Origin: Escherichia coli
GTDB taxonomy: Bacteria; Pseudomonadota; Gammaproteobacteria; Enterobacterales; Enterobacteriaceae
Length of the DNA: 64,000 bases
Assembly (NCBI RefSeq): GCF_003018235.1
Contig: NZ_CP027437.1
Strand: one strand, 5' to 3'
Below are positions 2 to 32,565 of this stretch, in pieces. The position numbers and the translations under genes were made by a program. Position 1 is the first letter of the stretch, and every line of letters starts with the position of its first letter. The notes beneath the pieces were generated by a model that saw only the letters and a list, made by a program, of their open reading frames with translations, was not told the DNA's origin and did not search any database.

Positions 2-2185
2 CAGGATGTTATTGCCATGTTTGACATGAATAAGCCAGAGGGCTTTGACTGTCCGGGATGTGCATGGCCAGATCCTAAGCACAGTGCGTCATTCGACATT
101 TGTGAAAACGGCGCAAAAGCAATCGCCTGGGAAGTCACGGATAAGCAGGTAAATGCCTCTTTCTTTGCTGAGAATACGGTTCAATCATTACTTACCTGGG
201 GAGATCACGAGCTTGAGGCTGCGGGGCGTCTCACTCAGCCTTTGAAATATGATGCCGTCAGCGACTGTTACAAGCCATTAAGCTGGCAACAAGCTTTCGA
301 CGAAATAGGCGCACGCCTTCAAAGCTATAGTGATCCCAATCAGGTTGAATTCTATACTTCGGGCCGCACTTCCAATGAAGCTGCCTTTCTTTATCAGCTT
401 TTTGCCCGTGAATACGGGAGCAATAACTTTCCCGACTGTTCCAACATGTGCCATGAACCGACCAGTGTGGGTTTGGCAGCGAGTATCGGTGTAGGTAAAG
501 GGACCGTGTTGCTGGAAGACTTTGAGAAATGCGATTTAGTCATTTGCATTGGGCATAACCCTGGTACAAACCACCCTCGCATGTTGACTTCGTTGCGCGC
601 TTTAGTGAAACGGGGAGCGAAAATGATCGCCATCAATCCTCTACAGGAACGTGGCCTGGAGCGATTTACCGCACCGCAAAACCCGTTTGAAATGCTGACG
701 AACTCTGAGACTCAGTTGGCCAGTGCCTACTACAACGTGCGCATTGGTGGTGATATGGCGTTGCTCAAGGGGATGATGCGCCTGTTAATTGAGCGCGATG
801 ATGCTGCAAGCGCCGCAGGTCGGCCCTCATTGCTGGATGACGAATTTATTCAAACGCATACCGTCGGCTTTGACGAGCTACGCCGTGACGTTCTCAATTC
901 CGAGTGGAAAGATATCGAGCGTATTTCTGGACTAAGTCAGACTCAAATCGCCGAACTGGCTGATGCATATGCCGCTGCCGAACGCACCATTATCTGTTAC
1001 GGAATGGGGATCACTCAGCACGAACATGGTACCCAGAATGTACAGCAACTGGTCAATCTGCTGTTGATGAAAGGTAACATTGGCAAGCCTGGTGCGGGTA
1101 TCTGCCCACTACGAGGTCACTCTAATGTACAGGGCGACCGAACCGTCGGTATCACCGAGAAACCGTCTGCAGAGTTTCTGGCTCGCCTGGGTGAGCGCTA
1201 TGGTTTCACCCCACCTCATGCACCTGGACATGCTGCAATTGCCAGCATGCAAGCAATATGTACGGGGCAGGCTCGAGCATTGATCTGCATGGGGGGCAAC
1301 TTTGCACTGGCAATGCCAGATCGGGAAGCGAGCGCTGTACCGTTAACGCAATTAGACCTGGCGGTACACGTTGCCACTAAGCTTAACCGCTCTCATCTGC
1401 TGACCGCACAGCATAGCTATATTCTGCCGGTTCTTGGGCGTAGCGAGATTGACATGCAAAAAAGCGGTGCGCAGGCGGTAACCGTTGAGGATTCAATGTC
1501 GATGATTCATGCCTCGCGTGGCGTGTTAAAACCCGCCGGTGTAATGCTGAAATCAGAGTGTGCAGTGGTCGCGGGAATCGCGCAGGCAGCACTACCCCAG
1601 AGCGTGGTAGCCTGGGAGTATCTGGTGGAAGATTATGATCGCATTCGCAATGACATTGAAGCTGTGCTGCCAGAGTTCGCCGACTATAACCAGCGCATCC
1701 GTCATCCTGGAGGTTTTCACCTGATAAACGCAGCTGCTGAAAGGCGCTGGAGGACGTCGTCAGGTAAGGCTAATTTCATTACCAGTAAAGGGCTGTTAGA
1801 AGATCCCTCTTCAGCGTTTAACAGTAAGCTAGTCATGGCGACAGTACGCAGTCACGATCAGTACAACACGACGATTTATGGTATGGATGATCGCTATCGA
1901 GGGGTATTCGGTCAACGAGATGTGGTCTTTATGAGTGCTAAACAAGCTAAAATTTGCCGTGTAAAAAACGGCGAAAGAGTTAATCTTATTGCGCTTACGC
2001 CAGACGGTAAGCGAAGCTCACGCCGCATGGATAGATTAAAAGTGGTCATTTACCCTATGGCTGACCGCTCACTGGTGACCTATTTTCCAGAATCGAATCA
2101 CATGCTAACACTTGATAACCACGATCCATTAAGTGGCATTCCTGGCTATAAAAGTATTCCGGTTGAATTAGAACCATCAAATTAA
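2..2185 (+). CDS. ydeP: Molybdopterin-containing oxidoreductase YdeP, acid-resistance associated; 5' end cut by window edge
   Basis: ORF 17..2185 is open back to position 2 in the same frame; N-terminal Cys cluster (CPGCAW) typical of formate-dehydrogenase-like Mo enzymes; recognised as E. coli YdeP from the translation. Confidence 0.9.
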
Positions 2186-2198
2186 TTCGCCTCCTCAT

Positions 2199-2229
2199 TT
2201 CTTCTGCTGTCATCCGCACAGCAGAAGAA
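2199..2229 (+). terminator. Perfect 12-bp inverted repeat (ttcttctgctgt / acagcagaagaa, 7-nt loop) just after the ydeP stop; probable transcription terminator
   Basis: Palindrome read directly in sequence; no strong T-tract follows, so efficiency is uncertain. Confidence 0.45.
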
Positions 2230-2303
2230 TTCCTCATTGACCATTGTCGCGCAATTTACTCACATGTGCTAAATTAAACTGCTCGTTATAAGATATATAC
2301 CTC

Positions 2304-2321
2304 CGCCTACAGCTGTAAGAA
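2304..2321 (+). promoter_or_regulatory. Candidate EvgA box upstream of safA-ydeO (CCTACA-gc-TGTAAGAA)
   Basis: Near match to the 18-bp EvgA inverted-repeat consensus TTCYTACA-N2-TGTARGAA, about 110 bp upstream of the safA start; EvgA control of safA-ydeO is established knowledge. Confidence 0.45.
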
Positions 2322-2432
2322 ACTCCGCTCAGTACCGAAGCGCCAGTCCTATTTCCTCTATTCTCCAGCCTGTTATATTAAGCATACTGATTAACGATGC
2401 TTAACGTCATTCATTTAATAAACACATTTGAA

Positions 2433-2630
2433 ATGCATGCGACCATAGTGAAAAACAAAATCACGCAAAGAGACAACTATAAAGAAATCATGTCTGTAAT
2501 TGTGGTTGTCTTATTACTGACCCTTACGTTGATAGCCATTTTTTCGGCAATTGATCAGCTGGGTATTTCAGAAATGGGTCGCATTGCAAGGGATCTTACA
2601 CATTTCATTATCAATAGTTTGCAAGACTGA
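2433..2630 (+). CDS. safA: SafA, small membrane connector protein between the EvgS/EvgA and PhoQ/PhoP systems (65 aa)
   Basis: ORF 2397..2630 contains the SafA sequence from the internal ATG at 2433 (MHATIVKNKITQRDNYKEIMSVIVVVLLLTL...); single transmembrane segment. Confidence 0.85.
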   Translation: MHATIVKNKITQRDNYKEIMSVIVVVLLLTLTLIAIFSAIDQLGISEMGRIARDLTHFIINSLQD

Positions 2631-2704
2631 AAATAAACAGCAAATTATAAATATGAAATGTTAAAAAAGTATCGATAAAAACTTTATTGTTTTAAGGAGA
2701 TAAA

Positions 2705-3466
2705 ATGTCGCTCGTTTGTTCTGTTATATTTATTCATCATGCCTTCAACGCTAACATTTTAGATAAAGATTACGCCTTCTCTGACGGCGAGATCCTGATG
2801 GTAGATAACGCTGTTCGTACGCATTTTGAACCTTATGAGCGGCATTTCAAAGAAATCGGATTTAATGAAAATACCATTAAAAAATATCTACAATGCACTA
2901 ACATCCAGACAGTGACGGTGCCTGTTCCTGCGAAGTTTTTACGTGCTTCAAATGTACCGACTGGATTGCTTAATGAAATGATTGCTTATCTCAACTCGGA
3001 AGAACGCAATCATCATAATTTTTCAGAACTTTTGCTTTTTTCTTGCCTGTCTATTTTTGCCACATGCAAAGGTTTCATTACACTATTAACTAACGGTGTG
3101 CTATCCGTTTCCGGGAAAGTGAGAAATATTGTCAACATGAAGCTGGCGCACCCATGGAAGCTGAAAGATATTTGTGACTGCCTGTACATCAGTGAAAGCC
3201 TGCTCAAGAAAAAACTAAAGCAAGAGCAAACGACATTCTCACAGATTCTTTTAGATGCCAGAATGCAGCACGCAAAAAATTTGATACGCGTAGAAGGTTC
3301 AGTTAATAAAATTGCCGAACAATGTGGTTATGCCAGTACATCTTATTTTATTTATGCGTTCCGCAAACATTTCGGCAACAGTCCGAAGAGAGTTTCTAAG
3401 GAGTACCGTTGTCAAAGGCACACGGGAATAAATACGGGCAACACGATGAATGCTTTAGCTATTTGA
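2705..3466 (+). CDS. ydeO: AraC-family transcriptional activator YdeO (acid resistance)
   Basis: 253-aa ORF with C-terminal AraC-type HTH; AGGAG RBS 7 nt upstream of ATG; recognised as YdeO. Confidence 0.9.
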   Translation: MSLVCSVIFIHHAFNANILDKDYAFSDGEILMVDNAVRTHFEPYERHFKEIGFNENTIKKYLQCTNIQTVTVPVPAKFLRASNVPTGLLNEMIAYLNSEERNHHNFSELLLFSCLSIFATCKGFITLLTNGVLSVSGKVRNIVNMKLAHPWKLKDICDCLYISESLLKKKLKQEQTTFSQILLDARMQHAKNLIRVEGSVNKIAEQCGYASTSYFIYAFRKHFGNSPKRVSKEYRCQRHTGINTGNTMNALAI

Positions 3467-3515
3467 TTATTTGCTAACAAGTATTCAACCACGCACCCTA
3501 CGTAAAAATTAAAAT

Positions 3516-3536
3516 GGGGCAGCCATTCCCTGCCCC
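3516..3536 (+). terminator. Stem-loop (ggggcag ... ctgcccc) downstream of ydeO
   Basis: Inverted repeat read in sequence; weak T-tract. Confidence 0.35.
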
Positions 3537-3868
3537 GCGTTGTCTCCAGTCGATATATTATCATGAGATAAATAAGTGACAGCCGTCACATATTTATGCA
3601 TTTACATAACCTGTTGCATGATTATTTATGATCTCAATTCTGGATTTTGTCAGTAAATATAATATTTTATTAAATATCAATGGATTAGATGTTTATCATT
3701 GAGAAATTACTTAGTAGAACAGAAAGTAATGTCAACGCTTTATGGACTGTTATTTCCCTTTTTTTAGCTAAATCTGCTATCTCTTTATGTGACTAACTTC
3801 ACTTACACCCACTTATTTCTCTTCGTAAAATTACTTTGGAATTAAGTACAATAAGAAGAGGAACATTT

Positions 3869-5551
3869 ATGAAGTCTGCATTAAAGAAAAGTGTCGTAAG
3901 TACCTCGATATCTTTGATACTGGCATCTGGTATGGCTGCATTTGCTGCTCATGCGGCAGATGATGTAAAGCTGAAAGCAACCAAAACAAACGTTGCTTTC
4001 TCAGACTTTACGCCGACTGAATACAGTACCAAGGGAAAGCCAAATATTATCGTACTGACTATGGATGATCTTGGTTATGGACAACTTCCTTTTGATAAGG
4101 GATCTTTTGACCCAAAAACAATGGAAAATCGTGAAGTTGTCGATACCTACAAAATAGGGATAGATAAAGCCATTGAAGCTGCGCAAAAATCAACGCCGAC
4201 GCTCCTTTCATTAATGGATGAAGGCGTACGTTTTACTAACGGCTATGTGGCGCACGGTGTTTCCGGCCCCTCCCGCGCCGCAATAATGACCGGTCGAGCG
4301 CCCGCCCGCTTTGGTGTCTATTCCAATACCGATGCTCAGGATGGTATTCCGCTAACAGAAACTTTCTTGCCTGAATTATTCCAGAATCATGGTTATTACA
4401 CTGCAGCAGTAGGTAAATGGCACTTGTCAAAAATCAGTAATGTGCCGGTACCGGAAGATAAACAAACGCGTGACTATCATGACAACTTCACCACATTTTC
4501 TGCGGAAGAATGGCAACCTCAAAACCGTGGCTTTGATTACTTTATGGGATTCCACGCTGCAGGAACGGCATATTACAACTCCCCTTCACTGTTCAAAAAC
4601 CGTGAACGCGTCCCCGCAAAAGGTTATATCAGCGATCAGTTAACCGATGAGGCAATTGGCGTTGTTGATCGTGCCAAAACACTTGACCAGCCTTTTATGC
4701 TTTACCTGGCTTATAATGCTCCGCACCTGCCAAATGATAATCCTGCACCGGAGCAATATCAGAAGCAATTTAATACTGGTAGTCAAACAGCAGATAACTA
4801 CTACGCTTCCGTTTATTCTGTTGATCAGGGTGTAAAACGCATTCTCGAACAACTGAAGAAGAACGGACAGTATGACAATACTATTATTCTCTTTACCTCC
4901 GATAATGGTGCGGTTATCGATGGTCCTCTGCCGCTGAACGGGGCGCAAAAAGGCTATAAGAGTCAGACCTATCCTGGCGGTACTCACACCCCAATGTTTA
5001 TGTGGTGGAAAGGAAAACTTCAACCCGGTAATTATGACAAGCTGATTTCCGCAATGGATTTCTACCCGACAGCTCTTGATGCAGCCGATATCAGCATTCC
5101 AAAAGACCTTAAGCTGGATGGCGTTTCCTTGCTGCCCTGGTTGCAAGATAAGAAACAAGGTGAGCCACATAAAAATCTGACCTGGATAACCTCTTATTCT
5201 CACTGGTTTGATGAGGAAAATATTCCCTTCTGGGATAATTACCACAAATTTGTCCGCCATCAGTCAGACGATTACCCGCATAACCCCAACACCGAGGATT
5301 TAAGCCAATTCTCTTATACGGTGAGAAATAACGATTATTCGCTAGTCTATACAGTAGAAAACAATCAGTTAGGTCTCTACAAACTGACGGATCTACAGCA
5401 AAAAGATAACCTTGCCTCCGCGAATCCGCAGGTCGTTAAAGAGATGCAAGGCGTGGTAAGAGAGTTTATCGACAACAGCCAGCCACCGCTTAGCGAGGTA
5501 AATCAGGAGAAGTTTAACAATATCAAGAAAGCACTAAGCGAAGCGAAATAA
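3869..5551 (+). CDS. ydeN: Putative serine-type sulfatase YdeN with signal peptide
   Basis: Start at ATG 3869 (MKSALKK..., AGAGGAA RBS) within ORF 3836..5551; sulfatase active-site signature with Ser in place of Cys (GVSGPSRAAIMTGR). Confidence 0.9.
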   Translation: MKSALKKSVVSTSISLILASGMAAFAAHAADDVKLKATKTNVAFSDFTPTEYSTKGKPNIIVLTMDDLGYGQLPFDKGSFDPKTMENREVVDTYKIGIDKAIEAAQKSTPTLLSLMDEGVRFTNGYVAHGVSGPSRAAIMTGRAPARFGVYSNTDAQDGIPLTETFLPELFQNHGYYTAAVGKWHLSKISNVPVPEDKQTRDYHDNFTTFSAEEWQPQNRGFDYFMGFHAAGTAYYNSPSLFKNRERVPAKGYISDQLTDEAIGVVDRAKTLDQPFMLYLAYNAPHLPNDNPAPEQYQKQFNTGSQTADNYYASVYSVDQGVKRILEQLKKNGQYDNTIILFTSDNGAVIDGPLPLNGAQKGYKSQTYPGGTHTPMFMWWKGKLQPGNYDKLISAMDFYPTALDAADISIPKDLKLDGVSLLPWLQDKKQGEPHKNLTWITSYSHWFDEENIPFWDNYHKFVRHQSDDYPHNPNTEDLSQFSYTVRNNDYSLVYTVENNQLGLYKLTDLQQKDNLASANPQVVKEMQGVVREFIDNSQPPLSEVNQEKFNNIKKALSEAK

Positions 5552-5563
5552 CTAAACCTTCAT

Positions 5564-5589
5564 GCGGCGGATTTTTCCGCCGCCTTATT
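5564..5589 (+). terminator. Hairpin gcggcgg-attttt-ccgccgc between ydeN and ydeM (partial terminator or attenuator)
   Basis: Inverted repeat read directly; sits only ~15 nt before the ydeM start so read-through is likely. Confidence 0.35.
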
Positions 5590-5602
5590 GAGCGAGATAG
5601 CG

Positions 5603-6760
5603 ATGCACGTTACAGCCAAGCCCTCCAGTTTTCAATGTAATCTCAAATGTGATTACTGTTTTTACCTTGAAAAAGAGTCGCAGTTTACTCATGAAAAATG
5701 GATGGATGACAGCACTCTGAAAGAGTTCATCAAACAATATATCGCAGCGTCTGGCAATCAGGTCTATTTTACCTGGCAAGGCGGTGAACCCACTCTGGCT
5801 GGCCTGGATTTTTTCCGTAAAGTTATTCACTATCAACAACGCTATGCCGGCCAAAAACGAATTTTTAATGCATTACAAACGAATGGCATTTTATTGAATA
5901 ATGAATGGTGTGCCTTTCTCAAAGAACATGAGTTTCTGGTTGGTATCTCGATCGATGGCCCCCAGGAGCTACATGACCGCTACAGACGCAGTAATTCAGG
6001 TAACGGTACTTTTGCAAAAGTGATAGCAGCCATCGAGCGTCTGAAATCATATCAAATAGAGTTTAATACGTTAACCGTCATTAATAACATTAATGTCCAT
6101 TACCCTCTTGAGGTTTATCATTTTTTAAAATCTATCGGCAGTAAACATATGCAATTTATCGAATTGCTCGAAACCGGGACGCCGAATATTGATTTCAGTG
6201 GTCATAGTGAGAACACATTCCGTATCATTGATTTTTCTGTGCCTCCTACGGCTTATGGCAAGTTTATGTCGACCATTTTTATGCAATGGGTTAAAAACGA
6301 TGTGGGTGAAATTTTCATCCGTCAGTTTGAAAGCTTTGCCAGCCGTTTTTTGGGGAATGGGCATACCAGTTGTATTTTCCAGGAGTCCTGCAAGGATAAT
6401 CTGGTTGTTGAAAGTAATGGAGACATTTACGAATGCGACCATTTTGTCTATCCACAGTACAAAATTGGAAACATTAATAAATCTGAACTTAAAACGATGA
6501 ACAGTGTACAACTGACAGCGCAAAAAAAACGGATTTCAGCGAAATGTCAGCAATGTGCATATAAACCTATCTGCAATGGCGGTTGCCCTAAGCATCGTAT
6601 TACTAAAGTAAACAATGAGACTGTTTCCTATTTTTGCGAAGGTTATAAAATCCTTTTTTCAACCATGGTACCTTATATGAACGCCATGGTGGAGTTAGCC
6701 AAGAACAGAGTACCGCTTTACCACATCATGGATGTTGCAAGACAAATGGAGAATAATTAA
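5603..6760 (+). CDS. ydeM: Radical-SAM anaerobic sulfatase-maturating enzyme homolog YdeM
   Basis: CxxxCxxC radical-SAM motif (CNLKCDYC) near the N-terminus plus C-terminal Cys clusters; start at ATG 5603 (MHVTAKPSS...). Confidence 0.9.
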
Positions 6761-7000
6761 TAACGCTCCCTCTTTGCTCCAGTCTTAGCTTCGTTCTTAT
6801 GGCCTTAACAAGACACCCGACATAAATTACTGTTGGGTGTTTCGTCATCATCATCTTCCCTTGCGAAAATTCTGACTTACGTGGTATGCGTCAGGGCATT
6901 AGCAATACCCTTGATTATCAATAGCATAACCATAACCACTGAAAATTAAAAAATTCTTTATATTTCATATTGTTAAATGATACTTAAATAAATTTCATCA

Positions 7001-7030
7001 GTAAATCATTGCCATAGATAATCATTGGAT
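7001..7030 (+). promoter_or_regulatory. Candidate Fur box upstream of yddA (aaatcatt...gataatcatt)
   Basis: Repeated GATAAT/ATCATT hexamers resembling the Fur consensus GATAATGATAATCATTATC; a second AATGATAACCATT element overlaps the yddA start codon. Confidence 0.4.
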
Positions 7031-7050
7031 GGCACAATCAATTTTCGCTA

Positions 7051-8736
7051 ATGATAACCATTCCCATTACATTTCGTATGTTGATAGCAAAGTATCTCTG
7101 TCTGCTGAAGCCCTTTTGGCTGCGTAAGAATAATAAAACTTCAGTGCTGTTAATCATTATTATCCTCGCCATGATCCTTGGCGTTGTTAAAATTCAGGTC
7201 TGGTTAAACGACTGGAATAATGATTTTTTCAATGCGCTAAGCCAGAAAGAAACCGATAAGCTTTGGCAGCTTGTTCTTTGGTTCCCTGCCCTGCTGGGGA
7301 TCTTTGTATTAATATCCGTAAACAAAACATGGTTAATTAAACTACTGACAATTCGCTGGCGCGAATGGTTAACAGATTACTACCTTAATCGCTGGTTTGC
7401 AGATAAAAACTACTACTTCACGCAGATCTACGGTGAGCATAAAAATACAGATAACCCTGACCAACGTATCGCTGAAGACATTCTCTTACTGATCAGCAAA
7501 ACGCTCAGCCTTTCATTTGGCTTCATCCAGTCACTTAGCATGCTGATCACCTTTACCGTTATTCTTTGGCAAAGCGCGGGTACGCTCTCATTCACTGTTG
7601 GTGGAACTGAATGGAATATCCAGGGGTATATGGTCTATACCGTCGTGCTCATTGTGATCTGTGGAACTTTATTTACCCATAAGGTTGGTAAACGTATTCG
7701 TCCGCTTAATGTGGAAAAACAACGTAGCGAAGCGACATTTCGAACTAATCTTGTGCAGCATAATAAGCAGGCAGAACTGATTGCGCTAAGCAATGCTGAG
7801 TCTTTACAACGCCAGGAGTTGAGCGACAATTTTCATACCATTAAAGAGAACTGGCATCGTTTAATGAATCGTCAGCGCTGGCTTGATTACTGGCAGAATA
7901 TTTATTCGCGCTCGCTTAGCGTTCTTCCCTACTTTCTGTTATTGCCACAGTTTATTAGCGGACAGATCAATCTGGGCGGACTGATGAAATCGCGCCAGGC
8001 ATTTATGCTGGTATCGAACAATTTAAGCTGGTTTATTTATAAATATGACGAACTCGCTGAACTGGCTGCGGTTATCGATCGCTTGTATGAGTTCCATCAA
8101 CTCACCGAACAGCGCCCTACGAATAAGCCAAAAAATTGCCAACATGCGGTTCAAGTGGCTGACGCGAGTATTCGTACTCCTGATAATAAGGTTATATTAG
8201 AGAACCTGAACTTTCATGTTTCGCCAGGCAAATGGCTCTTACTGAAAGGTTACTCTGGTGCGGGAAAAACCACACTGCTTAAAACATTATCCCACTGCTG
8301 GCCGTGGTTTAAAGGTGATATTTCGTCTCCTGCTGACAGTTGGTATGTGTCACAAACACCGTTAATCAAAACCGGCTTACTGAAAGAGATAATTTGTAAA
8401 GCACTTCCCTTGTCCGTAGACGATAAATCGTTGAGCGAAGTACTGCATCAGGTTGGTCTGGGGAAATTGGCTGCGCGTATTCATGACCACGATCGCTGGG
8501 GAGATATTCTTTCCAGCGGCGAAAAACAACGTATCGCCCTGGCACGATTAATTTTACGACGTCCGAAATGGATATTTCTTGACGAAACTACCTCTCATCT
8601 TGAGGAACAAGAGGCTATCCGCTTACTGCGTTTAGTGCGTGAAAAACTACCCACAAGCGGCGTCATTATGGTTACACATCAACCCGGTGTCTGGAACCTG
8701 GCTGATGATATTTGTGACATTAGCGCGGTTTTATAA
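7051..8736 (+). CDS. yddA: ABC transporter YddA, fused permease and ATPase (SbmA/BacA-like)
   Basis: 561-aa ORF; N-terminal membrane domain, Walker A (GYSGAGKTT) and ABC signature (LSSGEKQRIALARL). Confidence 0.9.
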   Translation: MITIPITFRMLIAKYLCLLKPFWLRKNNKTSVLLIIIILAMILGVVKIQVWLNDWNNDFFNALSQKETDKLWQLVLWFPALLGIFVLISVNKTWLIKLLTIRWREWLTDYYLNRWFADKNYYFTQIYGEHKNTDNPDQRIAEDILLLISKTLSLSFGFIQSLSMLITFTVILWQSAGTLSFTVGGTEWNIQGYMVYTVVLIVICGTLFTHKVGKRIRPLNVEKQRSEATFRTNLVQHNKQAELIALSNAESLQRQELSDNFHTIKENWHRLMNRQRWLDYWQNIYSRSLSVLPYFLLLPQFISGQINLGGLMKSRQAFMLVSNNLSWFIYKYDELAELAAVIDRLYEFHQLTEQRPTNKPKNCQHAVQVADASIRTPDNKVILENLNFHVSPGKWLLLKGYSGAGKTTLLKTLSHCWPWFKGDISSPADSWYVSQTPLIKTGLLKEIICKALPLSVDDKSLSEVLHQVGLGKLAARIHDHDRWGDILSSGEKQRIALARLILRRPKWIFLDETTSHLEEQEAIRLLRLVREKLPTSGVIMVTHQPGVWNLADDICDISAVL

Positions 8737-8773
8737 AAACAATAAAAGCCCTGCTGTACGGAGATAAAAATAA

Positions 8774-11146
8774 ATGAAGCGAGTTCTTATTCCTGGCGTC
8801 ATTTTATGTGGCGCTGATGTGGCGCAGGCCGTCGATGACAAAAATATGTACATGCATGTTTTTGAAGAGATGACGGTCTATGCTCCTGTCCCTGTACCCG
8901 TAAACGGCAACACGCATTACACCAGTGAAAGCATCGAGCGTTTACCGACCGGGAATGGCAATATCAGCGATCTGCTGAGAACCAACCCTGCGGTACGCAT
9001 GGATTCAACGCAAAGTACCTCATTGAACCAGGGAGATATTCGCCCTGAGAAAATCTCTATTCACGGTGCGTCGCCCTACCAGAATGCCTATTTGATTGAT
9101 GGTATTAGTGCAACTAATAACCTGAACCCAGCGAATGAGTCCGATGCCAGTAGTGCAACCAATATTAGCGGGATGTCACAGGGGTATTATCTAGATGTCA
9201 GCTTACTTGACAATGTGACGCTTTATGACAGTTTTGTGCCGGTTGAATTTGGTCGCTTCAATGGCGGGGTAATTGATGCAAAGATCAAACGCTTCAATGC
9301 TGATGATAGCAGCGTGAAACTGGGTTATCGCACTACGCGTTCGGACTGGTTAACATCGCATATCGATGAGAATAACAAGAGCGCATTTAATCAAGGTTCT
9401 TCAGGAAGTACTTATTACTCTCCAGATTTTAAAAAGAACTTTTATACCTTGTCGTTTAATCAGGAACTGGCTGATAACTTCGGCGTTACCGCCGGTTTAT
9501 CGCGCCGCCAGTCTGATATCACCCGCGCGGATTATGTTTCGAATGACGGCATTGTCGCCGGTCGGGCACAGTATAAAAACGTTATCGATACCGCAGTGAG
9601 CAAATTTACCTGGTTTGCCAGCGACCGCTTTACCCACGATTTAACATTAAAATATACCGGCTCCAGTCGTGATTATAATACCAGCACCTTCCCGCAGTCT
9701 GATCGTGAAATGGGTAATAAATCCTACGGTCTGGCATGGGATATGGATACGCAGCTCGCAAGGGCCAAACTACGTACCACCGTTGGTTGGGATCATATTA
9801 GTGATTATACCCGTCACGATCATGACATCTGGTACACCGAACTTTCATGTACATATGGTGATATTACAGGGCGTTGCACCCGTGGCGGATTAGGACACAT
9901 TTCCCAGGCTGTAGATAATTACACCTTCAAAACACGCCTGGACTGGCAAAAATTCACCGTGGGTAATGTTTCGCATCAACCCTACTTCGGCGCGGAATAC
10001 ATCTATTCCGATGCATGGACTGAACGCCATAACCAGTCTGAATCCTATGTGATTAATGCTGCCGGAAAGAAAACTAACCATACCATTTACCATAAAGGTA
10101 AAGGCAGCCTGGGAATTGACAACTATACGCTGTATATGGCGGATCGCATTAGCTGGCGTAATGTGTCATTAATGCCCGGCGTGCGGTATGACTATGACAA
10201 CTATCTGTCAAACCACAATATCTCCCCGCGCTTTATGACGGAATGGGATATTTTTGCTGATCAAACCTCAATGATTACCGCCGGTTATAACCGTTACTAT
10301 GGCGGGAATATTCTTGATATGGGATTACGTGATATCCGCAATAGCTGGACGGAATCGGTATCAGGCAATAAAACCCTGACGCGTTATCAGGATTTGAAAA
10401 CACCTTATAACGATGAACTGGCAATGGGGTTGCAGCAGAAAATCGGTAAGAACGTTATTGCGCGTGCAAACTATGTTTATCGTGAAGCGCATGATCAAAT
10501 CAGTAAAAGCAGTCGTACCGACAGCGCGACTAAAACCACCATTACTGAATATAACAACGACGGCAAAACCAAAACGCATTCGTTCAACCTCAGTTTTGAA
10601 CTGGCCGAACCCCTGCATATCAGCCAGGTAGATATTAACCCGCAAATTGTCTTTAGCTATATCAAGAGCAAGGGCAACTTGTCGTTAAACAATGGTTATG
10701 AGGAAAGCAATACCGGCGATAACCAGGTGGTTTATAACGGTAATCTGGTCTCTTACGATAGCGTTCCAGTGGCAGATTTTAATAACCCATTAAAGATCTC
10801 CTTAAACATGGATTTCACGCATCAACCGAGCGGGTTGGTGTGGGCGAATACGCTGGCCTGGCAAGAAGCGCGTAAAGCTCGCATTATCCTGGGTAAGACG
10901 AATGCGCAATACATCAGCGAATATTCAGATTACAAGCAGTATGTTGACGAAAAACTGGATAGCAGCCTGACCTGGGACACCCGCTTGTCCTGGACGCCAC
11001 AATTTCTGAAACAACAAAACCTGACGATCAGTGCCGATATTCTCAATGTACTGGATAGCAAAACCGCGGTTGATACAACGAATACCGGTGTGGCGACCTA
11101 CGCCAGTGGCCGTACTTTCTGGCTTGATGTCAGCATGAAATTTTAA
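8774..11146 (+). CDS. yddB: TonB-dependent outer-membrane transporter YddB
   Basis: 790-aa ORF, C-terminal aromatic residue (..VSMKF), beta-barrel-like composition; recognised as YddB. Confidence 0.9.
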   Translation: MKRVLIPGVILCGADVAQAVDDKNMYMHVFEEMTVYAPVPVPVNGNTHYTSESIERLPTGNGNISDLLRTNPAVRMDSTQSTSLNQGDIRPEKISIHGASPYQNAYLIDGISATNNLNPANESDASSATNISGMSQGYYLDVSLLDNVTLYDSFVPVEFGRFNGGVIDAKIKRFNADDSSVKLGYRTTRSDWLTSHIDENNKSAFNQGSSGSTYYSPDFKKNFYTLSFNQELADNFGVTAGLSRRQSDITRADYVSNDGIVAGRAQYKNVIDTAVSKFTWFASDRFTHDLTLKYTGSSRDYNTSTFPQSDREMGNKSYGLAWDMDTQLARAKLRTTVGWDHISDYTRHDHDIWYTELSCTYGDITGRCTRGGLGHISQAVDNYTFKTRLDWQKFTVGNVSHQPYFGAEYIYSDAWTERHNQSESYVINAAGKKTNHTIYHKGKGSLGIDNYTLYMADRISWRNVSLMPGVRYDYDNYLSNHNISPRFMTEWDIFADQTSMITAGYNRYYGGNILDMGLRDIRNSWTESVSGNKTLTRYQDLKTPYNDELAMGLQQKIGKNVIARANYVYREAHDQISKSSRTDSATKTTITEYNNDGKTKTHSFNLSFELAEPLHISQVDINPQIVFSYIKSKGNLSLNNGYEESNTGDNQVVYNGNLVSYDSVPVADFNNPLKISLNMDFTHQPSGLVWANTLAWQEARKARIILGKTNAQYISEYSDYKQYVDEKLDSSLTWDTRLSWTPQFLKQQNLTISADILNVLDSKTAVDTTNTGVATYASGRTFWLDVSMKF

Positions 11147-11190
11147 TAGTTCGGATTTTACTTAACCGGGTAAATTTGCCCGGTTTTCGC

Positions 11191-13986
11191 ATGGAGATAA
11201 TTATGAGAAACCTCTGTTTCTTACTGACGTTAGTGGCAACTCTGTTGCTCCCCGGGCGACTGATTGCCGCCGCCTTACCGCAGGATGAAAAGTTAATTAC
11301 CGGGCAACTGGACAATGGCTTGCGATATATGATTTATCCGCATGCTCAACCAAAGGATCAGGTAAATTTATGGCTGCAAATTCATACGGGTTCATTGCAG
11401 GAAGGAGACAATGAGCGCGGCGTGGCTCATTTTGTAGAACATATGATGTTTAACGGCACAAAAACATGGCCGGGTAATAAAGTCATCGAAACATTTGAGT
11501 CGATGGGTCTGCGCTTTGGTCGCGATGTTAATGCCTATACCAGCTATGACGAAACGGTGTATCAGGTGAGTTTGCCGACTACGCAGAAACAAAATCTGCA
11601 ACAAGTGATGGCAATCTTCAGTGAATGGAGTAATGCCGCAACCTTTGAAAAACTCGAAGTAGACGCTGAACGCGGCGTAATTACTGAGGAATGGCGTGCC
11701 CATCAGGATGCGAAATGGCGCACCTCTCAGGCGCGCCGCCCTTTCCTGCTGGCTAATACCCGTAATTTAGACCGTGAACCTATCGGCCTGATGGATACTG
11801 TCGCTACGGTCACACCGGCACAATTGCGCCAATTTTATCAACGCTGGTATCAACCAAATAATATGACCTTTATCGTGGTCGGCGATATCGATAGTAAAGA
11901 AGCGCTGGCGCTGATTAAGGATAATTTAAGTAAGCTTCCGGCTAACAAAGCAGCTGAAAATCGCGTCTGGCCGACAAAAGCCGAAAACCACCTGCGCTTT
12001 AATATCATTAATGATAAAGAAAACCGGGTGAACGGCATCGCACTCTATTATCGCCTGCCAATGGTGCAAGTGAGCGATGAGCAAAGCTTTATCGAACAAG
12101 CTGAATGGAGCATGTTGGTTCAGCTGTTCAATCAGCGTCTGCAGGAACGCATACAGTCGGGCGAGTTGAAGACTATTTCTGGCGGCACTGCGCGCAGCGT
12201 TAAAATTGCACCCGATTATCAGTCGCTGTTTTTCCGTGTAAATGCACGAGACGATAATATGCAGGATGCTGCGAATGCATTAATGGCAGAGTTGGCAACT
12301 ATTGATCAGCATGGTTTTTCTGCTGAAGAACTCGATGATGTCAAATCTACCCGTCTCACCTGGCTGAAAAATGCGGTTGATCAGCAAGCTGAACGTGATT
12401 TACGTATGCTGACCAGTCGCCTGGCATCCAGCTCATTAAATAATACGCCGTTCTTGTCGCCGGAAGAGACATATCAACTTTCGAAACGTCTGTGGCAGCA
12501 AATTACCGTGCAAAGTCTGGCGGAAAAATGGCAGCAGTTAAGAAAGAACCAGGATGCATTTTGGGAGCAAATGGTAAACAATGAGGTTGCTGCCAAAAAC
12601 GCATTGTCTCCTGCGGCTATCCTGGCGCTGGAAAAAGAGTACGCCAACAAAAAGCTGGCGGCTTACATCTTCCCAGGCAGAAATTTATCGTTAACAGTAG
12701 ACGCTGACACACAGGCGGAAATTAGCAGCAAAGAAACGCTGGCTGAGAATCTGACATCATTAACACTTTCCAATGGTGCCAGGGTTATTCTGGCAAAATC
12801 CGCGGGTGAAGAGCAAAAACTACAAATTACTGCCGTATCTAATAAAGGCGATTTAAGTTTCCCTGCGCAGCAAAAATCACTTATCGCGCTGGCAAATAAA
12901 GCAGTAAGCGGAAGCGGCGTTGGTGAACTCTCCTCTTCCAGCCTGAAACGCTGGAGTGCGGAAAACTCGGTAACCATGAGCAGTAAAGTCAGTGGCATGA
13001 ATACATTGCTCTCTGTTAGCACGCGGACTAATAACCCTGAACCTGGTTTCCAGTTGATTAACCAGCGAATCACCCACAGCACGATTAACGATAATATTTG
13101 GGCATCGCTACAAAATGCTCAAATTCAGGCGTTGAAAACGCTCGACCAGCGTCCAGCGGAGAAATTCGCCCAGCAGATGTATGAGACGCGCTATGCTGAT
13201 GACCGCACGAAATTACTGCAAGAAAATCAGATTGCACAGTTTACTGCCGCAGATGCGCTGGCTGCCGATCGCCAGTTGTTTTCATCTCCAGCGGATATCA
13301 CGTTTGTCATTGTCGGTAATGTCGCAGAAGACAAACTCCTGCCGTTAATTACGCGTTACTTAGGATCAATCAAACACTCTGATTCGCCATTAGCCGCAGG
13401 TAAACCATTAACTCGCGCGACGGACAACGCATCGGTTGCTGTAAAAGAACAAAATGAACCTGTGGCACAGGTTTCACAGTGGAAGCGTTATGATTCCCGG
13501 ACACCTGTAAATCTGGAGACGCGTATGGCGCTCGATGCTTTTAACGTCGCACTGGCAAAAGATCTACGCGTTAATATTCGTGAACAGGCATCTGGAGCAT
13601 ACAGCGTTTCTTCTCGCCTCTCGGTTGATCCTCAGGCCAAAGATATCAGTCATTTGCTGGCTTTTACTTGTCAACCGGAACGACATGATGAACTGTTAAC
13701 GTTAGCGAATGAAGTGATGGTTAAACGTCTGGCTAAAGGGATCAGTGAGCAAGAACTGAACGAATACCAGCAAAACGTTCAGCGCAGCCTCGATATCCAA
13801 CAGCGTAGCGTTCAACAATTAGCGAACACCATTGTAAATAGTCTTATTCAATATGACGATCCTGCAGCATGGACTGAGCAGGAGCAATTGTTGAAACAAA
13901 TGACGGTAGAGAATGTTAACACTACCGTTAAACAATATCTTTCTCATCCGGTAAATACTTATACCGGAGTATTATTGCCAAAATAA
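11191..13986 (+). CDS. pqqL: Periplasmic M16-family zinc metalloprotease PqqL
   Basis: Inverted zinc-binding motif HxxEH (HFVEH) in the N-terminal domain; signal peptide; start taken at ATG 11191 (MEIIMRNL...) to give 931 aa. Confidence 0.9.
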   Translation: MEIIMRNLCFLLTLVATLLLPGRLIAAALPQDEKLITGQLDNGLRYMIYPHAQPKDQVNLWLQIHTGSLQEGDNERGVAHFVEHMMFNGTKTWPGNKVIETFESMGLRFGRDVNAYTSYDETVYQVSLPTTQKQNLQQVMAIFSEWSNAATFEKLEVDAERGVITEEWRAHQDAKWRTSQARRPFLLANTRNLDREPIGLMDTVATVTPAQLRQFYQRWYQPNNMTFIVVGDIDSKEALALIKDNLSKLPANKAAENRVWPTKAENHLRFNIINDKENRVNGIALYYRLPMVQVSDEQSFIEQAEWSMLVQLFNQRLQERIQSGELKTISGGTARSVKIAPDYQSLFFRVNARDDNMQDAANALMAELATIDQHGFSAEELDDVKSTRLTWLKNAVDQQAERDLRMLTSRLASSSLNNTPFLSPEETYQLSKRLWQQITVQSLAEKWQQLRKNQDAFWEQMVNNEVAAKNALSPAAILALEKEYANKKLAAYIFPGRNLSLTVDADTQAEISSKETLAENLTSLTLSNGARVILAKSAGEEQKLQITAVSNKGDLSFPAQQKSLIALANKAVSGSGVGELSSSSLKRWSAENSVTMSSKVSGMNTLLSVSTRTNNPEPGFQLINQRITHSTINDNIWASLQNAQIQALKTLDQRPAEKFAQQMYETRYADDRTKLLQENQIAQFTAADALAADRQLFSSPADITFVIVGNVAEDKLLPLITRYLGSIKHSDSPLAAGKPLTRATDNASVAVKEQNEPVAQVSQWKRYDSRTPVNLETRMALDAFNVALAKDLRVNIREQASGAYSVSSRLSVDPQAKDISHLLAFTCQPERHDELLTLANEVMVKRLAKGISEQELNEYQQNVQRSLDIQQRSVQQLANTIVNSLIQYDDPAAWTEQEQLLKQMTVENVNTTVKQYLSHPVNTYTGVLLPK

Positions 13987-14248
13987 TAACAGCCCCGTCA
14001 ACACATCGTTGGCGGGGATTTTATCAATATTCGCTATTTTTATGTAATAATTTTATAAATGCGTTCAAAATAATAACCAAGTACTAATAGTGATATTTTA
14101 AGGTCTGATTTTTACGTGATAATTCAGGAGGCGTAGAAAGTGCATAAAAATAACAGCATAAAACACCTTGCCACCACCCAAGAATTCAATAATGTATTGA
14201 TTTTCAATGATAAAATATTATTCGCATAATATCTCACGATAAATAACA

Positions 14249-14268
14249 TTAGGATTTTGTTATTTAAA
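14249..14268 (+). promoter_or_regulatory. GAD box (GadE/GadX-binding 20-mer TTAGGATTTTGTTATTTAAA) upstream of gadB
   Basis: Exact 20-nt gad-box sequence present about 80-100 bp upstream of the gadB start. Confidence 0.7.
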
Positions 14269-14347
14269 CACGAGTCCTTTGCACTTGCTTACTTTATCGA
14301 TAAATCCTACTTTTTTAATGCGATCCAATCATTTTAAGGAGTTTAAA

Positions 14348-15748
14348 ATGGATAAGAAGCAAGTAACGGATTTAAGGTCGGAACTACTCGATTCACGTTT
14401 TGGTGCGAAGTCTATTTCCACTATCGCAGAATCAAAACGATTTCCGCTGCACGAAATGCGCGATGATGTCGCATTCCAGATTATCAATGACGAATTATAT
14501 CTTGATGGCAACGCTCGTCAGAACCTGGCCACTTTCTGCCAGACCTGGGACGACGAAAATGTCCACAAGTTGATGGATTTATCCATTAACAAAAACTGGA
14601 TCGACAAAGAAGAATATCCGCAATCCGCAGCCATCGACCTGCGTTGCGTAAACATGGTTGCCGATCTGTGGCATGCGCCTGCGCCGAAAAATGGTCAGGC
14701 CGTTGGCACCAACACCATTGGTTCTTCCGAGGCCTGTATGCTCGGCGGGATGGCGATGAAATGGCGTTGGCGCAAGCGTATGGAAGCTGCAGGCAAACCA
14801 ACGGATAAACCAAACCTGGTGTGCGGTCCGGTGCAAATCTGCTGGCATAAATTCGCCCGCTACTGGGATGTGGAGCTGCGTGAGATCCCTATGCGCCCCG
14901 GTCAGTTGTTTATGGACCCGAAACGCATGATTGAAGCCTGCGACGAAAACACCATCGGCGTGGTGCCGACTTTCGGCGTGACCTACACCGGTAACTATGA
15001 GTTCCCGCAACCGCTGCACGATGCGCTGGATAAATTCCAGGCCGACACCGGTATCGACATCGACATGCACATCGACGCCGCCAGCGGTGGCTTCCTGGCA
15101 CCGTTCGTCGCCCCGGATATCGTCTGGGACTTCCGCCTGCCGCGTGTGAAATCGATCAGTGCTTCAGGCCATAAATTCGGTCTGGCTCCGCTGGGCTGCG
15201 GCTGGGTTATCTGGCGTGATGAAGAAGCGCTGCCGCAGGAACTGGTGTTCAACGTTGACTATCTCGGTGGTCAGATTGGGACTTTCGCCATCAACTTCTC
15301 CCGCCCGGCGGGTCAGGTGATTGCACAGTACTATGAATTCCTGCGCCTCGGTCGTGAAGGCTATACCAAAGTACAGAACGCCTCTTACCAGGTTGCCGCT
15401 TATCTGGCGGATGAAATCGCCAAACTGGGGCCGTATGAGTTCATCTGTACCGGTCGCCCGGACGAAGGCATCCCGGCGGTTTGCTTCAAACTGAAAGATG
15501 GTGAAGATCCGGGATACACCCTGTACGACCTCTCTGAACGTCTGCGTCTGCGCGGCTGGCAGGTTCCGGCCTTCACTCTCGGCGGTGAAGCCACCGACAT
15601 CGTGGTGATGCGCATTATGTGTCGTCGCGGCTTCGAAATGGACTTTGCTGAACTGTTGCTGGAAGACTACAAAGCCTCCCTGAAATATCTCAGCGATCAC
15701 CCGAAACTGCAGGGTATTGCCCAGCAGAACAGCTTTAAACATACCTGA
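14348..15748 (+). CDS. gadB: Glutamate decarboxylase beta (PLP-dependent)
   Basis: 466-aa product from ATG 14348 ([19 protein letters not shown]...); PLP-lysine motif [10 protein letters not shown]. Confidence 0.95.
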
Positions 15749-32470: not shown

Positions 32471-32565
32471 TCTCCCTTTTTCAGATCTCATCCATACTGG
32501 GTAGTGGCGAATAAATCTCATTTGCCTCACCTGCTATGCAGAACATCATCCGAAAAGGAGGAACT

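Follow-up and report, generated by a model that had tools for sequence, protein, structure and literature searches.

A Fur box across the annotated yddA start of the Escherichia coli yddA-yddB-pqqL operon, a putative protein-import system resembling Fus

The DNA analysed here is a 64,000-nt stretch (hereafter the window) of the contig NZ_CP027437.1 of Escherichia coli, in which the genes yddA, yddB, and pqqL specify an SbmA-like ATP-binding cassette (ABC) transporter, a TonB-dependent transporter (TBDT) of the outer membrane, and a periplasmic M16 zinc protease (Table 1). We consider it very probable that yddA-yddB-pqqL is an operon repressed by Fur through a box at its predicted promoter and, by analogy with the ferredoxin-importing Fus systems, that its products have a role in protein import. 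An initial annotation, made from the sequence alone, had put forward both the observation of Fur-box-like repeats and this interpretation; the former is confirmed and the latter supported, and both were already published, i.e., the Fur box, the iron regulation, and the Fus likeness have all been in print since 2013-2019. Our analysis adds three unpublished elements: (i) a probable correction of the yddA start codon, (ii) Fur boxes in distant relatives, including those of insect-gut bacteria, and (iii) a common 6.3-kb deletion.

The annotated gene order at the locus is ydeN - ydeM - (yneP, opposite strand) - yddA - yddB - pqqL - gadB - gadC. Pfam matches and sequence motifs agree with the gene assignments of the initial annotation (YddA as an SbmA-like ABC protein, YddB as TonB-dependent, PqqL as an M16 protease with an HFVEH zinc site). 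YddA contains ABC_membrane_2, SbmA_BacA, and ABC_tran domains, with the Walker A motif GYSGAGKT at residue 400; YddB contains a Plug domain, with a TonB-box-like EEMTVYA read near its N-terminus; and PqqL contains Peptidase_M16 and M16_C domains, with HFVEH at residues 76-80 (nt 11428-11442). The PqqL signal peptide ends ...LIA/AALPQD, and the mature N-terminus AALPQD agrees with a published Edman result (PMC6793856).

Table 1. Features of the yddA-yddB-pqqL region. Positions are those of the window; Fur scores are matches to the 19-bp consensus.
Feature	Position	Strand	Description
Upstream hexamers, best 19-mer	7011-7029	+	12/19; weak Fur-like half-site in the candidate promoter spacer
Candidate sigma-70 promoter of yddA-yddB-pqqL	7009-7038	+	Consensus scan, 9/12 matches, TG before the -10
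Primary Fur box GCTAATGATAACCATTCCC	7047-7065	+	15/19; spans the annotated yddA ATG
yddA	7051-8736	+	561 aa in the annotation; ABC ATPase joined to a membrane domain of the SbmA/BacA type
Second Fur-like site GAGGATAATAATGATTAAC	7149-7167	-	14/19; inside yddA, where it encodes the Ile-rich helix LLIIIIL
yddB	8774-11146	+	TonB-dependent outer-membrane transporter, 790 aa
pqqL	11203-13986	+	Periplasmic M16 zinc protease, 927 aa
Intrinsic-terminator-like hairpin	13993-14017	+	10 pairs, 7 of them G-C, then ATTTTAT; seven bases past the pqqL stop

The Fur box at the start of yddA

The sites bound by Fur follow an established 19-bp palindromic consensus, GATAATGATAATCATTATC, against which every 19-mer of the window was scored on both strands, the match counts being calibrated on clear published sites and on shuffled sequence. 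The Fur-box-like repeat that the initial annotation had seen overlapping the yddA start stood up to this scoring, a consensus count in place of a weight matrix: the primary box outscores every other 19-mer on both strands of the whole 64-kb window. Matches of at least 15/19 average 0.19 in dinucleotide shuffles of the entire window, and shuffles of the local AT-rich region (30-36% G+C upstream of yddA) reach 15/19 with P=0.005-0.013. By the same measure, published sites from chromatin immunoprecipitation with exonuclease digestion (ChIP-exo) score 16 (fepD/entS), 15 (fepB), 15 (entC), 14 (cirA), and 17 (fhuF), next to 15 for yddA. The box is identical in K-12, and its AATGATAACCATT crosses the annotated yddA ATG at 7051; that ATG is itself part of the box (AATGATAA).

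Published studies have demonstrated that Fur occupies the region, that the operon is derepressed when fur is mutated, and that its three genes are co-transcribed. In 2013, GGGAATGGTTATCATTAG, the reverse complement of window positions 7048-7065, was reported as a putative Fur box lying across the start codon of yddA; the same study described co-transcription of yddA, yddB, and pqqL by reverse-transcription PCR, derepression of the operon in a CFT073 fur mutant by quantitative PCR (qPCR), and >30-fold induction of yddA-yddB-pqqL in urine (PMC3855560). A Fur box at yddA was also detected computationally in 2014 (PMC4145685). By ChIP sequencing (ChIP-seq), yddAB-pqqL belongs to the genes bound directly by Fur in MG1655 and CFT073 (PMC4676285, 2015; PMC7157518, 2020). 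Lastly, Fur ChIP-exo of iron-replete MG1655 published in 2023 gave footprints at 1577347-74 (P47) and 1577233-67 (P46) (PMC10164565 supplement). Moved from the older MG1655 numbering to NC_000913.3 with an offset of 1,976 bases, and from there to the window, P47 falls at ~7043-7070, centred on the 15/19 box, and P46 at ~7150-7184, on the 14/19 site. Deletion of fur in MG1655 raises (in log2) yddA by 3.06, yddB by 2.95, and pqqL by 2.27, and yddA is up in the fur mutants of 8 of 9 strains (log2 ~2-7), the ninth being without a value (PMC10164565 supplement). At the protein level, bipyridine induces PqqL (PMC6793856).

These data bear directly on the explanation that the Fur-like hexamers are chance occurrences in AT-rich intergenic DNA, with no regulation of the operon. 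The base composition of the intergenic region would suit such an account, as would the performance of the upstream hexamers on their own (12/19, P=0.63) and the finding that dipyridyl or added iron left CFT073 yddA/yddB/pqqL transcripts unchanged by qPCR (PMC3855560). However, the ChIP results and those from fur mutants already contradict it; furthermore, the 15/19 site is the best of the window, well beyond shuffled expectation, and all eight related loci that we compared carry their best Fur match in the same position. We thus regard chance as an extremely improbable explanation.

As to which element is the operator, the GATAAT/ATCATT hexamers noticed initially do lie where they had been placed upstream of yddA (ATCATT at 7006-7011 and 7022, GATAAT at 7018), but they amount to a single perfect half-site, GATAATCATT at 7018-7027, and their 12/19 is within chance, with at least 12/19 being reached by 63% of shuffles of the intergenic region (P(max>=12)=0.63). 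By these shuffle scores, the box over the start is true signal, which the upstream hexamers by themselves are not. The operator could nevertheless be the hexamer pair (7006-7027) in the promoter spacer, or a Fur array spreading over 7003-7065 of which the start box is only a part. Fur polymerises along hexamer arrays, GATAATCATT is flanked by the predicted -35 and -10, a position where repressors classically bind, and the 30-mer at 7003-7032 is found exactly in 4,255 E. coli genomes. That conservation could equally reflect the promoter itself, though, and the hexamers are not conserved in E. fergusonii, where GATAATCATT is replaced by AACTACTCAC and the downstream box is kept; they also fall outside both published ChIP-exo footprints once the coordinates are mapped to the window. 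An operator centred on, or extending from, the upstream hexamers is therefore unlikely in our estimation, and we place the operative Fur site across the annotated start, which corrects the initial annotation in this detail.

The 14/19 site inside yddA did not figure in that annotation. The equivalent position scores only 12-13/19 in relatives and is made of Ile/Leu codons, for which reasons the match may merely follow from the protein that is encoded, even with a footprint reported there. An empirical Fur weight matrix from the published ChIP-exo footprints, with six MG1655 regions as its basis, was planned and dropped, because many footprints are motif-free (7-11/19 at fhuA P2/P4, fepB P16, P19, the fec peaks, and P135/P136) and appear to be flanking signals, and because the gene labels in the MG1655 sheet of the supplement are one row off (PMC10164565); we re-assigned the labels by coordinates. 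Elsewhere in the window, a weak 12/19 match lies upstream of adhP (32507-32525), at about the place of a published ChIP-exo peak by an unmapped coordinate estimate made after the one-row label correction (PMC10164565 supplement).

Candidate promoter, start codon, and end of the operon

The candidate promoter comprises a -35 element TTGCCA (7009-7014), an 18-nt spacer, and an extended -10 element TGgCACAAT (7030-7038, with CACAAT at 7033-7038). Transcription would start at ~7045, and the Fur box would then occupy ~+2 to +20. The intergenic DNA of E. fergusonii has mostly diverged from that of E. coli; TTGCAA...TGGCACAATC and CGCTAATGATAA survive, and the Fur-box core GCTAATGATAA is invariant. 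Amid the diverged surroundings, the retained -35 (TTGCAA) and TGGCACAAT coincide with the predicted promoter; its position and the resulting operator geometry are predictions. Judged by eye, GATAAT (7018-7023) was considered as an alternative -10 and set aside because it is not conserved in E. fergusonii. In the parts of the literature accessible to our search, no mapped yddA transcription start was found.

Comparison of N-termini makes it rather probable that the true start of yddA is Met10, at 7078, and that the annotated start at 7051 is an artefact of the ATG within the Fur box. In E. fergusonii, the same ATG is followed six codons on by an in-frame TAG, and YddA is annotated with 551 aa, its first residue being the equivalent of E. 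coli Met10. The N-termini of homologues lie within two residues of Met10 in the alignment, and three loci carry, 3-7 codons upstream, an in-frame stop by which the short N-terminus is fixed. The YddA of Gilliamella has been called in two versions, of 574 aa and 554 aa, the longer of which begins in the Fur box; gene callers seem to choose the Fur-box ATG there as well. With translation beginning at Met10, the Fur box would lie in the leader, upstream of the coding sequence.

At the other end of the operon, a terminator scan returned 2 sites where 0.2 were expected, and the hairpin past the pqqL stop is the probable operon end. Between the yddB stop and the pqqL start lies a 7-bp stem (AACCGGG / CCCGGTT) with an 8-nt loop and two more T's (11164-11187). 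In published RNA sequencing, pqqL has more basal expression than yddA/yddB and responds less to the loss of fur (PMC10164565 supplement), a pattern that, alongside the stem, hints at partial termination or an internal promoter.

Related clusters and losses within E. coli

Eight related loci were compared, in seven of which YddA is 83, 58, 53, 52, 51, 50, or 46% identical to that of E. coli, with a Dickeya Fus-type cluster (37%) as the eighth. The seven have the same ABC - TBDT - M16 arrangement, with the qualification that the M16 identity of one (L016) is not confirmed, its contig ending 157 codons into the gene after the TBDT. Going by source names, they include E. fergusonii (83%), a contig bearing Rep3/ParAB plasmid genes (58%), a metagenome-assembled genome of Enterobacteriaceae (53%), a member of the Orbaceae (50%), and the bee-gut bacterium Gilliamella apicola (46%). 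In all eight, no Fur match elsewhere in the 10-18 kb locus is better than one (15-17/19) that lies shortly upstream of the first gene, at a distance of <=100 bp in each cluster except that of Dickeya (249 bp), and each of these matches has a shuffle P<=0.006. The cluster was stated in 2013 to be confined to E. coli and Shigella (PMC3855560), a range that these loci, recognised by homology and gene order, widen.

Two of the loci have features of their own. In E. fergusonii, the locus is syntenic, with gadB and gadC next, yet its YddA shares only 83% identity with that of E. coli, a divergence greater than is usual between the two species; the upstream neighbours of the locus also differ from E. 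coli ydeM. The 58% cluster shares its contig (L010, with the features at 1336-6951 and 7459-14386) with genes for Rep3 replication, ParA/ParB, an integrase, and an IS21 helper protein, and this company suggests that a yddA-yddB-pqqL-like system is able to travel on a plasmid.

Of the ~4,590 E. coli genomes in which the region is retained, 4,554 have the 30-mer around the Fur box (7041-7070) without a change. Only 5 genomes have an exact copy of a control 30-mer taken 100 bp upstream, a single comparison that is illustrative only, the rarity being due to private changes there in the lineage of the window. The window comes from the E. coli chromosome, with matches to its bases 6700-9200 in 5,360 of 5,426 complete genomes, at best with 99.8% identity. 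At least 99% identity over these bases is found in only 5 complete genomes, the nearest being the sediment isolate SC418 and several pig isolates, and most genomes lie at 95-99%; the window therefore represents a less commonly sequenced E. coli lineage. Some ~200 bp upstream of the yddA promoter, the opposite strand carries the small ORF yneP (40 aa, 6726-6848, minus strand; named either 'hypothetical protein' or 'protein YneP' in annotations), which overlaps ydeM at its 3' end.

One identical deletion junction is common to 561 of the 5,426 complete E. coli genomes. It removes 6.3 kb (window 6771-13069) and, as read in one carrier (L021:4046-4095), fuses the final ~920 nt of pqqL to the end of ydeM, such that the promoter, the Fur boxes, yddA, yddB, and ~620 codons (two-thirds) of pqqL are gone. 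Eight of the 15 carrier strains listed are human-derived, and several strain names suggest, tentatively, that the lineage may be sequence type 131 (ST131). The blood isolate AF3 (L019) has a different deletion, of 807 bp (window 6908-7714), which takes out the promoter and the first 221 codons of yddA; as a cause of the ~15% of genomes without the region it was rejected, its junction being unique to AF3 and the 6.3-kb deletion being the common event. Separately, strain ET450 (L020) shows an IS1-associated loss of all three genes, and ETEC4079 carries IS1 inside yddA.

We regard as evenly balanced the joint proposition that (i) yddA starts at Met10, so that Fur acts where transcription of a leader lacking a Shine-Dalgarno sequence begins, (ii) the whole ABC-TBDT-M16 family, as found in Escherichia, bee-gut Orbaceae, and the Fus systems of plant pathogens, inherited its Fur control from a common ancestor, and (iii) the system has been deleted outright in one E. 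coli lineage, which accounts for about 10% of complete genomes and, among the 15 strains listed, consists mostly of human isolates.

Likeness to Fus systems and the question of cargo

The parallel with ferredoxin import drawn in the initial annotation is upheld by homology to FusA, FusC, and the Fus ABC protein, and the analogy had been published along with crystal structures of YddB and PqqL and with evidence that PqqL is periplasmic and active as a peptidase (PMC6793856, 2019; PMC5095587, 2016). Against the PDB, YddB matches its own structure (6OFR, 1724 bits), and, apart from itself, FusA, the ferredoxin receptor, is the only protein of solved structure to which it is related in sequence (4ZGV, E=7e-79). 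PqqL matches 6OFS/6OFT (1957 and 1040 bits), then 9LDY (E=2.7e-82), and over its full length the FusC structures 6B03/6B05/6BRS (E~1e-59). For YddA, the best solved relatives are 6TQE/6TQF (E=5.5e-68), the match to 6TQE covering residues 35-552; we take these to be an SbmA-like mycobacterial ABC transporter of hydrophilic compounds. The Dickeya cluster, reached via its YddA relative, has the order TonB - TBDT - M16 - ABC, and its FusA-like transporter is 29% identical to YddB over 800 aa (E=1e-96), its FusC-like protease 24% identical to PqqL over the full length (E=4e-59).

The E. coli operon thus shares with the FusABCD systems of Pectobacterium and Dickeya three protein types, namely a FusA-like TBDT, a FusC-like, single-chain, secreted M16 protease with the HxxEH motif, and a FusD-like ABC protein of the SbmA type, as well as an upstream match to the Fur consensus, which the Dickeya cluster also has. 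It differs in its order (ABC-TBDT-protease as opposed to TonB-TBDT-protease-ABC), in having no dedicated FusB TonB protein, and in that E. coli PqqL leaves plant and human ferredoxin uncleaved (PMC6793856). With the classical Fur operons (fepA-entD/fes, fepB/entC, fhuF, cirA) it has in common a 19-bp box of comparable score, for yddA at a predicted promoter, binding by Fur when iron is replete, and derepression upon mutation of fur; unlike them, it shows no growth phenotype under iron limitation (PMC6793856), has an inconsistent response to chelators across studies (PMC3855560 vs PMC6793856), and lacks an assigned siderophore or other small-molecule ligand. From SbmA/BacA proteins and their fused ABC relatives (6TQE/6TQF), with which YddA shares an SbmA_BacA/ABC_membrane_2 membrane domain and an ABC ATPase, it is set apart by being encoded beside an outer-membrane transporter and a periplasmic protease, under Fur.

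From these elements, we propose the following mechanism. When iron is sufficient, Fe2+-Fur sits on 7047-7065, just downstream of the predicted extended -10 and over the predicted transcription start, where it would prevent initiation or promoter escape. Under iron scarcity, Fur would come off, and the three genes would be transcribed on one mRNA ending at the hairpin 13993-14017; the urine and CFT073 data suggest that other cues join low iron in lifting repression. By analogy with Fus, YddB, energised by the housekeeping TonB, would import a small protein, probably one containing iron; PqqL would then cleave the imported protein in the periplasm, and YddA would carry the released product across the inner membrane.

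Several observations weigh against this reading. Although PqqL cuts peptides, the plant and human ferredoxins and the globins tested were left intact, and deletion of yddB or of pqqL did not impair growth under iron limitation (PMC6793856), which leaves iron piracy a putative function. No TonB_C (FusB-like) gene lies between ydeM and gadB in the E. coli cluster; the FusB-like TonB gene is likewise missing from the seven yddA-first relatives and is present in the Dickeya cluster. CFT073 transcripts were unmoved by chelator or added iron, and iron responsiveness would therefore be condition-dependent or in need of other signals. At the level of sequence signals, promoter-type matches are about as frequent as expected from shuffles (3 found vs 2.5), and a Shine-Dalgarno sequence is absent at both E. 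coli candidate starts, 7051 and 7078.

Part of this evidence would also fit a Fur-regulated operon whose cargo is peptides, antimicrobial peptides, or other hydrophilic compounds, or which exports drugs, with no iron being drawn from protein. Consistent with such a role are the closest solved relatives of YddA, the names given to YddA relatives ('vitamin B12/bleomycin/antimicrobial peptide transport' or 'multidrug') and the occasional labelling of YddA itself as a drug exporter, the normal growth under iron limitation and the uncleaved ferredoxins and globins (PMC6793856), and the strong rise of expression in urine next to the inert chelator in CFT073 (PMC3855560). Against it stand the conservation of Fur boxes over nine clusters in three bacterial families, the specific kinship in sequence with FusA, FusC, and the ABC protein of Fus, and the large, FusA-like extracellular binding site of YddB (PMC6793856). 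We regard a cargo of this other kind as a tentative possibility, and retain import of an iron-containing protein under Fur repression as the more plausible account. An ancestral Fur control of the family, if correct, would support an iron-bearing cargo in mammal, insect, and plant hosts alike.

The initial annotation had held the E. coli substrate to be not established, which is still its status in a December 2025 review, where the substrate of PqqL is entered as n/a (PMC12731061); our findings add nothing new on the identity of the cargo. The question is nonetheless a real one that bears on how E. coli acquires iron in the host, and it matters because yddB and pqqL have been reported as bloodstream fitness genes in uropathogenic CFT073, a role that also makes the 6.3-kb deletion noteworthy. 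The genomes without the system, about a tenth of sequenced E. coli, are thus natural knock-outs with which strains that keep it can be compared.

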